In this document: positions 19,448-47,770 of the stretch, piece after piece | Layout of the letters: each line of letters begins with the position of its first letter | Position numbering within the stretch: position 1 is the stretch's first letter | Source of the DNA: Actibacterium mucosum KCTC 23349 | GTDB lineage: Bacteria; Pseudomonadota; Alphaproteobacteria; Rhodobacterales; Rhodobacteraceae | Direction: 5' to 3' | Length of the DNA stretch: 64,000 bases | Assembly (NCBI RefSeq): GCF_000647975.1 | Contig: NZ_JFKE01000003.1 | Location: 132,206 to 196,205, forward strand | The notes under the pieces: generated by a model | Seen by the model: only the letters and a program-made list of their open reading frames with translations | Databases searched by the model: none | Told to the model about the DNA's origin: nothing | Translations under genes and position numbers: made by a program

Positions 19448-19537
<90 letters not shown>

Positions 19538-31433: not shown

Positions 31434-32567
31434 TCAGCGCATTTTGACAAGGTCGTTCATCAACCCCTCGGTCCCGCTGAGGACGGTCAGGTTGTCGACC
31501 TTGTCGGCGACGGCTTCCAGAGCTTCCAGCTCTTTCAGGCGCATCATCACCGGATGCTCGGCCATGACCTTGGCCGTGTTCAGAAGCGAACGCGTGGCGT
31601 TCGTCTCTTCCCGACGACGGATCACGTTGGCCTCGGCCTCTTTCTGCGCGGTCACAACCTGGTTCAGGATCTCGCGCATCTCGCCCGGCAGGATCACGTC
31701 TTTCAACGCGATCTCGCCCAGCTCGATGCCGATCCCGGCCATTTCGACCCGCACGGCCTCGGCGGCCTCGGCATCGACGCTGACCTTGTCAGCCAGCAAA
31801 GCGTCCAGCGTCAGCGCGCCAAGCGTCTTGCGGAAGGCCAGTTGCAGCGCCCGGTGCAGCGTTTCGGCGAAGTCTTTCACCAACTGCACCGCCTTGACCG
31901 GGTCAACCACACGGTAATCGGCGGTGATGTTCACCCGCAGCGTCACGCGGTCACGGGTCAGCATTTCCTGCCCGTTCACCTCGTGCATCTGCCAGCGCAG
32001 ATCGACCTGTTTCACCAGGTGCTTGCGCCCCAGCATCCAGAACCAATAGGTGCCCGGCTGCAAAACGCGGTCAAACACGCCATCCACGGTCAACAGACCC
32101 ACCTTGCCCTCGGCCACCTCGGTCGCGACCATCTGCTTGGTCAGGCCCGAGCGCATCAGACGCTGCGCCAGTTCGGCCGGCACCTCGTGGCGCTCGCCCA
32201 GCGGCACCATTTCCACCGACCAGTCGGCGGCGTCCTTCCAGAACAACATCTGCTTGTCCTGGCTGACCACCGCATGGGCGCGCCCCGAACGGGCCACCAC
32301 GGCCACCTCGTCCGGGCCGGTGACAACCTCGAAGAAATGGCGTTCAACCAGGTCCGGGCGGGTGTTCCGCAGCGGCTGTTCAAGATGCGAGTCAAAGCGC
32401 AGATCGCTCAGCGCGAAGGAGTGCATGTCGAGGTTCCGCGCCTTCAGACGGTGCTCGCCCGGGCCCAGAATATCGACGAAACGGCCTTTTTGCAGAACAA
32501 GCACACGCTTGGTCTCGGCCACGATCACACGCTGGTAGCCCAGCATTTTTTCAAACAAATACGTCAT
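31434..32567 (-). CDS. SPFH/band-7 domain protein
   Basis: 377 aa. A GAAGGAG RBS is present. The SPFH-like core is followed by a coiled-coil C-terminus. No clear N-terminal TM segment was seen. Confidence 0.65.
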   Translation of the reverse strand: MTYLFEKMLGYQRVIVAETKRVLVLQKGRFVDILGPGEHRLKARNLDMHSFALSDLRFDSHLEQPLRNTRPDLVERHFFEVVTGPDEVAVVARSGRAHAVVSQDKQMLFWKDAADWSVEMVPLGERHEVPAELAQRLMRSGLTKQMVATEVAEGKVGLLTVDGVFDRVLQPGTYWFWMLGRKHLVKQVDLRWQMHEVNGQEMLTRDRVTLRVNITADYRVVDPVKAVQLVKDFAETLHRALQLAFRKTLGALTLDALLADKVSVDAEAAEAVRVEMAGIGIELGEIALKDVILPGEMREILNQVVTAQKEAEANVIRRREETNATRSLLNTAKVMAEHPVMMRLKELEALEAVADKVDNLTVLSGTEGLMNDLVKMR

Positions 32568-32952
32568 TGGTTACATCTCCTTCTTCTTCGTCTCGCTAAC
32601 CGCGCAAACGCATTCTCCTTTTGGTTTCAGTTGGTTGCACCCGGAACGGGTGACAGGTGTGACATCCACGCGGGATTGCGCGGACGAAAATGAAGGGCGC
32701 CGGGGCCGCCTTTGCCGTGGCCAGAGGCGGGGCCGAAGGGGGCGACAACGCGGGGACCGGGCGGCGCGGCGTGGGATGGATCGAAACCCACCCGGCCGGG
32801 TTGCCCTTGCCCGGTTGCCGCGCCCAGCTGCCCGGCCAAAGGCCAGAGCGTGGCGGGCCCGCATCGCAGGTCGCCCGAAGGCCACCCTTGACGCACGGAC
32901 CACCCCGCAAGGCAGCCCCGGAACCGATATGGTGCGTTCTTTCGAGACGCGT

Positions 32953-33029
32953 TCAATAAGCCGGGAGTCGAACCCGGAACCTCTAGATTCGTAGTCTAGC
33001 GCTCTATCCAATTGAGCTACTTCATTCGG
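32953..33029 (-). tRNA. tRNA-Arg(ACG)-like element with a non-complementary 5' acceptor strand; likely a 5'-truncated pseudo-tRNA
   Basis: The D-arm (GCTCAATTGGATAGAGC), the anticodon arm (CTAGA-CTACGAA-TCTAG, anticodon ACG) and the T-arm (CCGGG-TTCGACT-CCCGG) are all intact. The 3' strand CTTATTG pairs with the upstream 7 nt (AATGAAG) at only 4 of 7 positions. Those upstream nucleotides are in fact the 3' end of the neighbouring tRNA-like element. Confidence 0.4.
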
Positions 33030-33093
33030 AGGGATTCGAACCCTCAACCCACAGAACCTGAATCTGTTGCTCTATCCATTGAGCTTCGAATAA
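33021..33093 (-). tRNA. atypical 73-nt tRNA-like element: class I (short variable loop) with anticodon CAG, A at position 8, and an AT-rich acceptor stem
   Basis: The full cloverleaf can be read directly: acceptor TTATTCG/CGAATGA (one G-U pair), D-arm GCTC-AATGGATA-GAGC, anticodon arm ACAGA-TTCAGGT-TCTGT, T-arm GAGGG-TTCGAAT-CCCTC. Bacterial tRNA-Leu normally has a long variable arm, so the isotype is uncertain. Confidence 0.45.
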
Positions 33094-33375
33094 CCGTCCA
33101 TTCACGACATTCCTGGCATACGGAACCGGCAGCGCCGTCCGCACCGGGGGAGTGATCACCTCCGACCCGCTAGGATATGCCCGTCAGGACAGGGCGCCCT
33201 TTTAGGCGGCGAAACTGGATTCGCGGTAAAGTAATTTTTGCGGCAAATGCACCCGTTGCGCGGGCGCAACATTATTTCAACGTTGCGCAACTTTTGCAAA
33301 GCCGAATGGCAAATCACGGCCGAAGGAACGCCGATCCGGTCTGCCAGGCATGTCGAAAATTGCCGAATTCAGAAT

Positions 33376-33870
33376 TCAGATCCTCAGACCTTCATCCATC
33401 AATTCGTCGATGAACAGACTGAGCAACTGAGGTCGTCCAGTAACGCCAGCCTTGCGGTATATCGCGGCGGTCTGGGCTTTCACTGTGCCTTCGGACGTGT
33501 TGCGGGTTTTGGCAATCTCGTGCGTGCTGAGTCCTTTAATGGCGAACAGAGCGACATCGCGTTCGGCAGGGGTCAGTGCCCAGTCCTGAAAATGTTCTTC
33601 CAAAACGTCGGCGAAGGCCCCCGAAGCAGCCCGCAGAGCGGTGCGCGCCTGTCGGGCCTCGCGCAGAGAACCGCGCAACAGGACAAAGGCCAACACTCCG
33701 CCAAGGATCAGCCCACCGGCGGCTGCGATTTCCATCAATTCGCGCAACTGCCAGTTCAACGGCCGGGCCCGAAGGCCAATCAAGCTGGACAGCAGGTCGG
33801 ACAGAAAGAATAGGGTGCAGATCGCCTGAATTACCAATATCACAACAAAGACAATGACTTGTCGGTTCAT
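33376..33870 (-). CDS. membrane-anchored LuxR-family (HTH) transcriptional regulator
   Basis: Two predicted N-terminal TM helices, then a C-terminal LuxR-type HTH (LTPAERDVALFAIKGLSTHEIAKTRNTSEGTVKAQTAAIYRKAGV). The ORF track starts at TTG 33891; ATG 33870 is preferred. Confidence 0.65.
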   Translation of the reverse strand: MNRQVIVFVVILVIQAICTLFFLSDLLSSLIGLRARPLNWQLRELMEIAAAGGLILGGVLAFVLLRGSLREARQARTALRAASGAFADVLEEHFQDWALTPAERDVALFAIKGLSTHEIAKTRNTSEGTVKAQTAAIYRKAGVTGRPQLLSLFIDELMDEGLRI

Positions 33871-33891
33871 TCGCGGCCACCGCAACAACAA

Positions 33892-46516: not shown

Positions 46517-47683
46517 TTACACTGCAGATTTCAGCGCATCGACCAGATCGGTTTTCTCCCAGCCAAAGCCGCCATCAGCCTCGGCCGCGCGACCAAAATG
46601 GCCATATGCCGCGGTGCGCTGATAGATCGGGCGGTTCATGCCCAGATGCTCGCGGATGCCGCGCGGGGTCAGGTCCATAACCTTGGCCAGCGCCTGTTCG
46701 ATCTCGGCCTCGCCCACCTGGCCGGTGCCATAGGTGTCGGCATAGATCGACAGCGGCTTGGCGACACCAATGGCATAGCTCAGCTGAATGCAGCACCGTT
46801 CAGCCATACCAGCGGCCACAACGTTCTTGGCCAGATAGCGCGCGGCATACGCGGCCGAGCGGTCCACCTTGGTGGGGTCTTTGCCCGAGAAGGCGCCGCC
46901 GCCATGGGGTGCGGCACCGCCATAGGTATCCACGATGATCTTGCGCCCGGTCAGGCCCGCATCACCATCCGGCCCACCGATCACGAACACGCCGGTCGGG
47001 TTCACGTGCCATTCGGTTTCCGGCGAAATCCAACCCTCGGGCAGAACTTCGCGGATATAGGGCTCGACAATCGCGCGGATCGCGGCGCTGTCGGTGCTTT
47101 CGGATTTATGCTGGGTTGACAGCACGATCGACGTGACGCCCACCGGCTTGCCGTTTTCGTATTTCACCGACAATTGCGATTTTGCGTCGGGCTCCAGCTC
47201 GGGCTCGGTGCCGTCTTTGCGCACCTCGGCCAGACGGCGCAGGATCGCGTGGGCATAGTGAATAGGGGCGGGCATCAGATGCTCGGTCTCGTTCACGGCA
47301 TAGCCGAACATGATGCCCTGATCGCCCGCGCCTTCGTCTTTGGCGTCACCGGCATCCACGCCTTGCGCGATATGGGCGGATTGTTCGTGCAGGTAGTTGT
47401 CCACGGACATGTTCTGCCAGTGGAACCCGTCCTGTTCATAGCCGATGTCGCGCACACAATCGCGGGCGATGTCTTCGACACGGTCCATCACCGATTGCGG
47501 TCCGCGCACCTCGCCGCCGATCACGACGCGGTTGGTGGTGGCAAAGGTTTCACACGCCACTCGGGCCTGCGGCTCCTCGGCAAGGAACGCGTCCAGTACG
47601 GCATCCGAGATGCGGTCGCAGACCTTGTCGGGGTGGCCCTCGGAAACGGATTCCGAAGTGAAGAGATAGTTCTGACGTGTCAT
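46517..47683 (-). CDS. metK: S-adenosylmethionine synthetase
   Basis: [12 protein letters not shown] is present, along with a GGGAFSGKD-type motif. The start is taken at [20 protein letters not shown]. Confidence 0.9.
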
Positions 47684-47770
47684 GAAAATGCTCCGATAGA
47701 TTTTTCCCACCCCGTCAGGAAGCCGTTGGGGCAGGTGCTAGATGGCTGTTACGCGGGTTACAGGGCCGGG

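Follow-up and report, generated by a model that had tools for sequence, protein, structure and literature searches.

A predicted tRNA-mimic leader RNA conserved upstream of an SPFH gene in Alphaproteobacteria

Plant mitochondrial t-elements and the MALAT1 mascRNA (RF01684) are transfer RNA (tRNA) shapes that do not decode; they lie within longer RNA and are cut by RNase P/RNase Z, which fixes where the RNA ends. In a 64-kb window of Actibacterium mucosum KCTC 23349 (the window being the whole stretch of DNA that we analysed), two abutting tRNA-like units lie upstream of a gene for an SPFH/Band 7 ('slipin') protein, on the minus strand, as do all elements of the finding. The comparisons set out below lead us to read these units as non-decoding tRNA mimics inside what appears to be one conserved RNA of ~630 nucleotides (nt), running from ~33199 to the SPFH start at 32567. 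In this RNA a 5' three-helix domain is followed by unit 1, unit 2, a small hairpin, a 3' structured domain, a further hairpin, a Shine-Dalgarno (SD) sequence with a mini-open reading frame (mini-ORF) and the SD and AUG of the SPFH gene. Rhodobacterales, Rhizobiales and Sphingomonadales all keep this order of parts, in strict linkage to the SPFH gene. The best explanation overall, to which we give somewhat better than even credence, is that we are looking at a tRNA-mimic leader of the SPFH messenger RNA (mRNA).

The mechanism of t-elements and mascRNA, embedded tRNA shapes and their processing, is the same as we would propose for units 1 and 2. Those elements are, however, organellar or eukaryotic, usually single and without conserved ornate flanks, and we know of no bacterial leader of this type. 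In transfer-messenger RNA (tmRNA), a tRNA-like domain with a G3-U70 pair is charged by alanyl-tRNA synthetase. As at our locus, an acceptor/T-arm module without a functional anticodon is joined to other RNA domains, but the units of the SPFH leader have full D and anticodon arms, and unit 1 of the window has neither G3-U70 nor CCA. A tmRNA was considered for the window and rejected: ARAGORN found none, the Rfam tmRNA model gave an 8.2-bit fragment on the T arm, and there is no tag reading frame. The thrS operator of Escherichia coli is an autoregulatory leader that regulates a tRNA synthetase by mimicking anticodon arms only, with the cognate anticodon conserved. It has in common with the SPFH leader a tandem tRNA mimicry in a 5' leader beside a translation start; the SPFH leader differs in its whole cloverleaves, in anticodons that vary freely and in that an SPFH protein is regulated or accompanied.

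Other large RNAs of bacteria offer a likeness of scale. GOLLD and ROOL RNAs often adjoin tRNAs. OLE is described as an RNA of ~600 nt that assembles into a ribonucleoprotein and is localised at the membrane (PMC9723947, PMC11332333). Like the RNA described here, all three extend over several hundred nucleotides with a multi-domain covarying structure and unknown biochemistry; unlike them, the SPFH leader, which matches none of their Rfam models, occurs in other taxa, keeps its place in cis ahead of a single gene and has a mini-ORF and SD at its 3' end. YrlA (RF02553) is also a larger non-coding RNA with a tRNA-mimicking module. It is described as a substrate of tRNA-recognising enzymes, with RNase P cleavage and CCA addition named, and its genes sit near Ro60/Rsr (PMC4201824). 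In the Rfam model of YrlA the T arm comes first and the D arm second, on either side of a short hairpin, and the RNA has a long terminal stem, whereas the SPFH leader has one to three unpermuted cloverleaves, different flanking domains and an SPFH partner. Scans of the window and 24 related loci at the gathering scores of Rfam 15 gave, within the leader, nothing but tRNA matches, so that no family there covers the 5' and 3' domains. An E-value scan of 32400-33400 gave, outside the tRNA units, only weak and scattered matches, a sub-threshold YrlA match being the sole non-tRNA signal.

The case for a single conserved RNA is built on its recurrence. We fetched 80 homologous loci from GTDB species genomes by SPFH protein alignment, covering Rhodobacterales, Rhizobiales and Sphingomonadales, and also took four related contigs through the closest SPFH homologues (the neighbourhoods of L001 and L003-L005, within 4 kb). 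A scan with the SPFH protein shows that at least 582 genome stretches encode a relative. At every locus a gap of ~800 nt lies upstream of the SPFH gene, and in ~70 of the 80 ARAGORN places one or two units on the strand of the gene, 330-620 nt ahead of its start codon. By a T-arm scan, two units are present in 62 loci, one in 17 and three in 3. Coming from the RNA side, a DNA pattern derived from the 5' domain retrieved 29 metagenome stretches, and all 23 of those with enough downstream DNA contain the tRNA-like unit or units and then an SPFH homologue 550-620 nt on. The units thus share the strand of the gene and keep a constant position upstream of it, as a leader should. Because the arrangement recurs in ~100 independent loci, the features of the window are far beyond chance.

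Within the window, ARAGORN and Infernal with Rfam 15 models confirmed, on the minus strand, the two abutting elements reported in an initial annotation of this DNA. Unit 1 (33021-33093) is called tRNA-Leu(CAG) by ARAGORN, with 73 nt and 45% GC, and scores 60.0 bits by the Rfam tRNA model against a gathering score of 29. It has an anticodon loop UUCAGGU, a 5-nt variable loop, A8, A73 and no encoded CCA, and its acceptor stem UUAUUCG/CGAAUGA is paired at 7/7 positions, with one U-G pair; it runs U1-A72 ... A3-U70 and so lacks G3-U70. The annotation had called this unit aberrant for its short variable loop, its A8 and its AT-rich acceptor stem with one U-G, and every one of these details is correct. 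Unit 2 (32953-33026/33027) is called tRNA-Arg(ACG) by ARAGORN at 32953-33027. Its anticodon loop is CUACGAA and its D, anticodon and T arms are intact, and it scores 56.3 bits with the Rfam tRNA model when scanned alone (Infernal suppresses unit 2 if unit 1 is present in the scan). Three of its acceptor pairs are non-canonical; both Infernal and our separate parse bear out the earlier count of 4/7 acceptor pairs, with 5' nucleotides borrowed from unit 1. The two units overlap by 6-7 nt, the 3' acceptor strand of unit 1 being the 5' acceptor strand of unit 2. That both might be ordinary tRNAs with proper acceptor stems, an outcome that would have spoken against the annotation, is true of the scores, which are good for both, but not of the stem of unit 2, which is defective. 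Neither unit is followed by CCA. The window supplies an internal contrast in an ordinary tRNA-Ser(UGA) at 19448-19537 (minus): its variable arm is long, its acceptor stem is rich in GC and its CCA is encoded. Mean GC is 53% for the tRNA-like units versus 68% for the 3' domain.

The overlap sets the window apart from its relatives. The T arms of units 1 and 2 are 68 nt apart, as against 71-79 nt in most two-unit loci, and the junction from the T stem of unit 1 to the D stem of unit 2 measures 11 nt. Elsewhere it is 15-22 nt long and comprises the acceptor 3' strand, then N73 and CCA, then a few further nucleotides. Because of this shorter junction, we take the overlap to be a lineage-specific deletion of the CCA and of unit 2's own 5' acceptor strand. 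The window copy is therefore a derived, atypical and contracted member of the RNA family. We also observe that the 3' tail of unit 2 (CUUAUUGAA) is a near repeat of the 5' strand of unit 1 (UUAUUCGAA), and that the middle strand CGAAUGA pairs with the 5' strand of unit 1 at 7/7 positions or else makes a poor pairing with that 3' tail. Since both strands are complementary to the shared CGAAUGA, two mutually exclusive acceptor pairings are possible in A. mucosum.

Across the family, the units keep the shape of a tRNA while their anticodons drift. Both retain U8-A9, the GG of the D loop (G18G19) and a GTTCRA T-loop, which argues that the L-shape is under selection, and their Rfam tRNA scores range from 33 to 71 bits. 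Anticodons for Leu, Arg, Lys, Asn, Gln, Met, Thr, Cys, Tyr, Val, Ile, Pro, Gly and more occur, with 25 different ones in 75 loci; in the 80 loci Stop(UUA) appears three times and many 'anticodons' of 2 or 4 nt cannot be read as triplets by ARAGORN. In Mesorhizobium, unit 2 is invariant save for the anticodon triplet and the usual variable positions of the D loop. The anticodon itself is, by this comparison, not under selection, its triplet being free to vary. The two units also differ from one another. Unit 1 has 6-7 acceptor pairs in 45/63 copies, an encoded CCA after the discriminator in 41/63 and an anticodon loop of 6 or 8 nt in 30/63. Unit 2 has 4-5 acceptor pairs in 49/62 copies (a stem of 3-5 bp overall), CCA in only 2/62 and a 7-nt anticodon loop, usually Y-U-NNN-A-A, in 59/62; the Rfam tRNA model often covers it at model positions 4-67 only. 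No leader column covaries with the anticodon, and no alignment column triplet pairs with it in more than 30% of loci. A T-box-like logic, or an anticodon-codon logic with the mini-ORF, was rejected: the mini-ORF codons are constant while the anticodons vary.

Further small elements follow the units. In the window, a small hairpin, GCGU-CUCGAAAGA-ACGC, is read from the sequence at 32934-32950 and sits where relatives have an anticodon-arm-like hairpin. The latter follows the last unit in 56/82 loci, within 75 nt of the last T arm, and is not found in the window; it has a 5-bp stem and a 7-nt loop of the form Y-U-NNN-R-N, for example CCGGC-CUUUUAA-GCCGG (L005, L008, L019, L025, L030 and others). 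Seven loci (L004, L011, L012, L035, L040, L079 and L080) carry an extra minihelix consisting of a T arm only (GGGTTCGACTCCC type), ~40-50 nt past the preceding T arm, after either unit 1 or unit 2. These minihelices suggest repeated gain, loss and decay of tRNA-derived modules.

The 5' structured domain (33094-33199) is predicted by covariance model and covariation as an outer helix followed by a junction with two hairpins, GGAG-GUGAUCA-CUCC and GUGCGG-A-CGGC-GCU-GCCG-GUU-CCGUAU. A seed alignment (A2) of the 120 nt before unit 1 in 24 Rhizobiales and Sphingomonadales sequences gave, with RNAalifold, 21 pairs, 16 of which have compensatory changes. The covariance model R1, built from this seed only and thus without Rhodobacterales, matched 75 times in 82 sources, on the strand of the gene and adjoining the tRNA-like units where checked, and Rhodobacterales are among the matches. 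Its sole match in the 64 kb of the window lies at 33095-33196 and abuts unit 1 (23.2 bits, E = 0.0026). In the alignment of the 75 sequences, 87.8% of cells are paired versus 75.1% when shuffled and at most 50% with the partners slid; 18/21 pairs have changes on both sides, and the observed values were reached by 0/500 shuffles. That alignment was fitted to R1, and the independent seed result points the same way. The support for the predicted domain is comparative, not thermodynamic.

In the 3' structured domain (32696-32925), a long-range closing helix pairs 32911-32925 (GGUUCCGGGGCUGCC) with 32696-32710 (GGCGGCCCCGGCGCC), and there are internal hairpins at 32869-32886 (UUCG loop), 32832-32846 and 32773-32793 (UUCG loop). 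The closing helix has 15-18 bp and encloses ~215 nt, for a domain of ~230 nt. Its sequence changes between lineages while the complementarity is kept (CCGGGGCUGCC/GGCGGCCCCGG, CCGGGGACCGG/CCGGUCCCCGG and CCUGAAGAAAGC/GCUUUCUUCAGG). In the 82 loci the duplex energy is -33.2 kcal/mol for cognate strands, -23.1 for non-cognate strands and -17.8 for shuffled ones; the cognate strand is among the best 10% of partners for 78% of loci. Compensatory changes occur at 13/15 pairs of the helix, and its covariation score was reached by 0/500 shuffles. The window segment 32690-32930 folds better than 200/200 shuffles (z = -3.78), and sequence blocks of the domain are conserved in all three orders. A long 'arm B' that RNAfold draws in the window conflicts with a local hairpin CUGGC-N5-GCCGG, which covaries by eye in the alignment, and for this reason we report only the supported helices.

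This stretch was also considered as coding sequence and that reading was rejected. Against the closest relative, L001, mismatches in 32568-32952 fall 29/30/37 by position modulo 3, without codon periodicity, and few of the indels (1, 10, 2, 1, 1, 3, 4, 2, 3, 1 and 1 nt) are divisible by three; the adjacent SPFH gene, which served as control, shows 56/39/137 mismatches and one 9-nt gap. In the four related contigs, too, gene callers left the corresponding gap empty. The claim in the initial annotation that ~380 GC-rich base pairs here lack a credible open reading frame is thus upheld by orthologous comparison, and its suggestion of a structured non-coding RNA or long leader gains support from the fold z-score, the closing helix and the non-coding test. 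It had listed the tRNA-like pair and the GC-rich stretch as two things; both are real, but they are parts of one RNA, of which its coordinates covered the middle and 3' parts and missed the 5' domain at 33094-33199. Past the 3' domain, a hairpin CACCC-GUUCC-GGGUG (32638-32652), in the block CACACCUGUCACCC..GGGUGCAACC, is conserved in Rhodobacterales loci.

The RNA ends beside the translation start of its gene. An SD-like AAAGGAG and a mini-ORF occupy 32596-32622, the latter reading AUG CGU UUG CGC GGU UAG or, in the register of the family, UUG CGC GGU UAG. In the last 140 nt before the SPFH start, an SD-like site with an ORF of 2-5 codons is present in 74/83 loci. It encodes M-R-R-R with CGA codons in Rhodobacterales and M-T, M-S or M-P in Rhizobiales and Sphingomonadales, and in two loci (L008 and L009) it is a start-stop GUG-UAG; it looks like a translational control device. 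The SPFH/Band 7 gene follows at 31434-32567, with its start codon at 32565-32567 and its own SD, GAAGGAG. Its product of 377 residues matches Pfam Band_7 (E = 2.8e-29) and is 100% identical to ACMU_09140 of A. mucosum KCTC 23349. The AlphaFold2 model has a beta-rich N-terminal region of ~135 residues, the SPFH domain and one long helix, with no transmembrane helix, and in structure it comes closest to stomatin, HflK/C and QmcA assemblies. Membership in a defence system was rejected, as PADLOC has no match for the SPFH protein. From the RNA to the SPFH gene, the minus strand shows no terminator-like site.

At its other end, the RNA would be preceded by a putative promoter, with a -35 TTTACC at 33225-33230 and a -10 CTAAAA at 33200-33205, recognised by alignment with clearer sites in relatives that lie directly 5' of the 5' domain (TTGCGA-N16-CTATAG in Mesorhizobium and TTGAGC-N17-CTAAAC in Ruegeria). 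Transcription would then begin near 33196-33199. Upstream of this promoter, operator-like palindromes are read from the sequence at 33282-33291 (GTTGCGCAAC) and 33255-33270 (GTTGC-N6-GCAAC), and a promoter scan places a sigma-70-like site at 33300-33271 that overlaps them. Loci of Rhodobacterales and Rhizobiales have GTTGC...GCAAC or TGTTGCG repeats in the corresponding position, and palindrome counterparts are seen in all three orders. The palindromes are a putative regulator binding site. A GerE/LuxR-type gene, at 33376-33891 (minus) in the window, is adjacent there and in L001, L002, L004 and L012, and its product may be their cognate regulator.

These parts can be joined into a model, at present a conditional one, in which a single transcript would comprise the RNA, as leader, and the SPFH mRNA, and the tRNA-shaped modules of the RNA would be recognised by shape, not by anticodon. 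As unit 1 generally retains its acceptor stem and CCA, enzymes that act on tRNA ends, such as RNase P, suggest themselves, as for the tRNA-like domain of YrlA (PMC4201824). Candidate binders would be enzymes of tRNA processing, namely RNase P (5' side) and, at unit 1, the CCA enzyme or a 3' endonuclease; the SPFH protein would be a further candidate, beside them or in their place. Such a binder would cut or occupy the leader, and the 3' domain together with the mini-ORF beside the main SD would set SPFH translation.

Several observations weigh against this model. In the window, the 5'-domain match of 23.2 bits is a weak one, and the domain folds no better than shuffled sequence (z = 0.18). The shuffle controls for the 5' domain and the closing helix ignore phylogeny. 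For the closing helix, the column count is blurred by a register shift of one column, with ~75% paired at both slide 0 and slide -1, MAFFT having put two lineages one column off; the duplex-energy test is the register-free complement. On cross-order or Rhodobacterales-wide MAFFT alignments, RNAalifold returned the closing helix only, or nothing, and the folding inside the 3' domain is resolved only in part. Nothing was found that links the SPFH protein to RNA binding. The start site, co-transcription and processing are all predicted from sequence alone. Finally, the copy in the window may be decaying, as its missing CCA and its contracted junction could indicate.

Other explanations deserve to be weighed against a tRNA-mimic leader. 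The RNA might be not mainly a regulator but a stable partner of the oligomeric SPFH protein, serving it as scaffold or as cargo. The two would form a ribonucleoprotein, with the RNA encoded in cis for joint production and the tRNA-like units as a protein-binding or enzyme-recruiting surface. The linkage of RNA and gene, strict from both search directions, an RNA far larger and more ornate than known cis-regulators, and a protein modelled without membrane anchor and with an extra N-terminal beta-rich domain would all suit such a particle, as would the cages that SPFH proteins form, as in the assemblies among its structural matches. We nevertheless consider it rather unlikely: the protein has no RNA-binding domain that we could find, the mini-ORF and SD directly 3' of the structured domain resemble translational control, and no terminator-like site would free the RNA. 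Alternatively, unit 1 could be excised as a non-decoding aminoacyl carrier, charged regardless of its anticodon, for instance with alanine through G3-U70, and used outside the ribosome. Most copies of unit 1 do keep the acceptor stem and CCA while the anticodon loop often has 6 or 8 nt, and G3-U70 occurs in 25/63 copies, 14 of which also have A73 and CCA, as in GCGGAUG...CGUCUGC-A-CCA; copies with all three are many in Rhizobiales and Sphingomonadales. Most Rhodobacterales copies, the window's included, lack G3-U70, however, and the window lacks CCA; no conserved aminoacyl-transferase lies beside the locus in the window or the four related loci, and the CCA may be kept merely for pairing with a downstream UGG in the acceptor stem of unit 2. 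Such a carrier seems improbable to us. Membership in the bacterial Y RNA family, with a tRNA-like domain tethering Ro60/Rsr, was prompted by the sub-threshold Rfam match to YrlA (30.7 bits, E = 1.8e-4, over the unit 1 T arm and the unit 2 D arm) and by the tRNA mimicry that the units share with YrlA (PMC4201824). The gathering score is 69, though, the match bridges two adjacent units, and any T arm closely before a D arm would give one like it. The units are complete, unpermuted cloverleaves, and the conserved partner is the SPFH gene; no TROVE (Ro60) gene lies within ~5 kb in the window or 4 kb in L001 and L003-L005, where the neighbours are SPFH, GerE, TrpB, TrpF, sulfotransferase, DUF2332 and others. 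We find this reading hard to credit.

It is very improbable, too, that the units are genuine decoding tRNA-Leu(CAG) and tRNA-Arg(ACG) genes whose co-transcription with the SPFH gene is incidental, for which the tRNAs upstream of tufB in E. coli are the comparison case. Their 60 and 56 bits, their intact D and T arms with G18G19 and T-loop, and the 7-bp acceptor stem and A73 of unit 1 would be at home in a functional tRNA. Against this, the anticodon differs even between congeners, stop anticodons and loops of 6 or 8 nt occur, and the 'Leu' unit has the short variable loop of class I with A8, not a class II arm with U8. Unit 2 pairs at 4/7 acceptor positions with a 5' strand common to unit 1, both units lack CCA, unlike the bona fide tRNA-Ser of the window, and their stems are AT-rich in a GC-rich genome. 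Two suggestions of the initial annotation, an integration remnant or a phage-derived tRNA pair, could draw on the low GC of the units relative to the genome and their odd overlapping arrangement, but they do not survive comparison and retain almost none of our confidence. The arrangement, the flanking domains and the same downstream gene are conserved in three orders, and no integrase appears in the gene tables viewed, those of the window neighbours and the four related loci. A distant-mode blastn search with the pair and its 5' flank against 50,697 phage records found neither pair nor flanks, giving only generic tRNA similarity of 57-62 nt, or 22-24% of the query; the SPFH protein and its neighbours have no anti-phage defence match, save a weak helix-turn-helix match of the GerE protein. 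The tRNA-mimic leader is our preferred account.

We found no description of this RNA in the searchable full-text literature, an incomplete set that lacks most subscription journals, so an earlier description is possible; term searches in three large surveys of bacterial RNA motifs from the Breaker laboratory likewise gave none (PMC5737381, PMC8632094, PMC11109978). Although tRNA mimicry, a structured leader and a mini-ORF are each familiar, we rate the RNA as a new class because the composite, and its association with SPFH, are not. A bolder proposal is that it constitutes an unrecognised class of structured RNA of 600-700 nt, widespread in Alphaproteobacteria, with a role beyond cis-regulation, either as a ribonucleoprotein with a soluble, cage-forming SPFH protein or through decoy-tRNA coupling to tRNA processing or charging. 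We hold this tentatively, as possible but open to more doubt than belief. Elsewhere in the window, a SAM/SAH riboswitch aptamer (RF01727, 54.4 bits) lies at 47689-47737 (minus), at the 5' end of an ORF of 397 codons at 46517-47710 (minus).

The finding has a practical side for genome annotation. Because the standard tRNA model gives the units 33-71 bits, they will be annotated as tRNA genes by tRNA finders. Such false calls, among them 'suppressor' (UUA) tRNAs and tRNAs with odd loops, would be contaminants in the tRNA gene counts of these genomes and in inferences on their codon usage. Carriers such as Ruegeria, Roseibium aggregatum, Mesorhizobium and Sphingopyxis are usable as models. If our inference holds, alphaproteobacteria would possess an unnoticed and ancient multi-domain RNA of the size of OLE, GOLLD and ROOL, with an SPFH relative encoded in at least 582 genome stretches. 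We know of no earlier bacterial example of an mRNA leader with complete cloverleaf mimics, so that this one would be the first, and it would tie RNA biology to a protein of the SPFH/stomatin family, whose bacterial functions are largely obscure.

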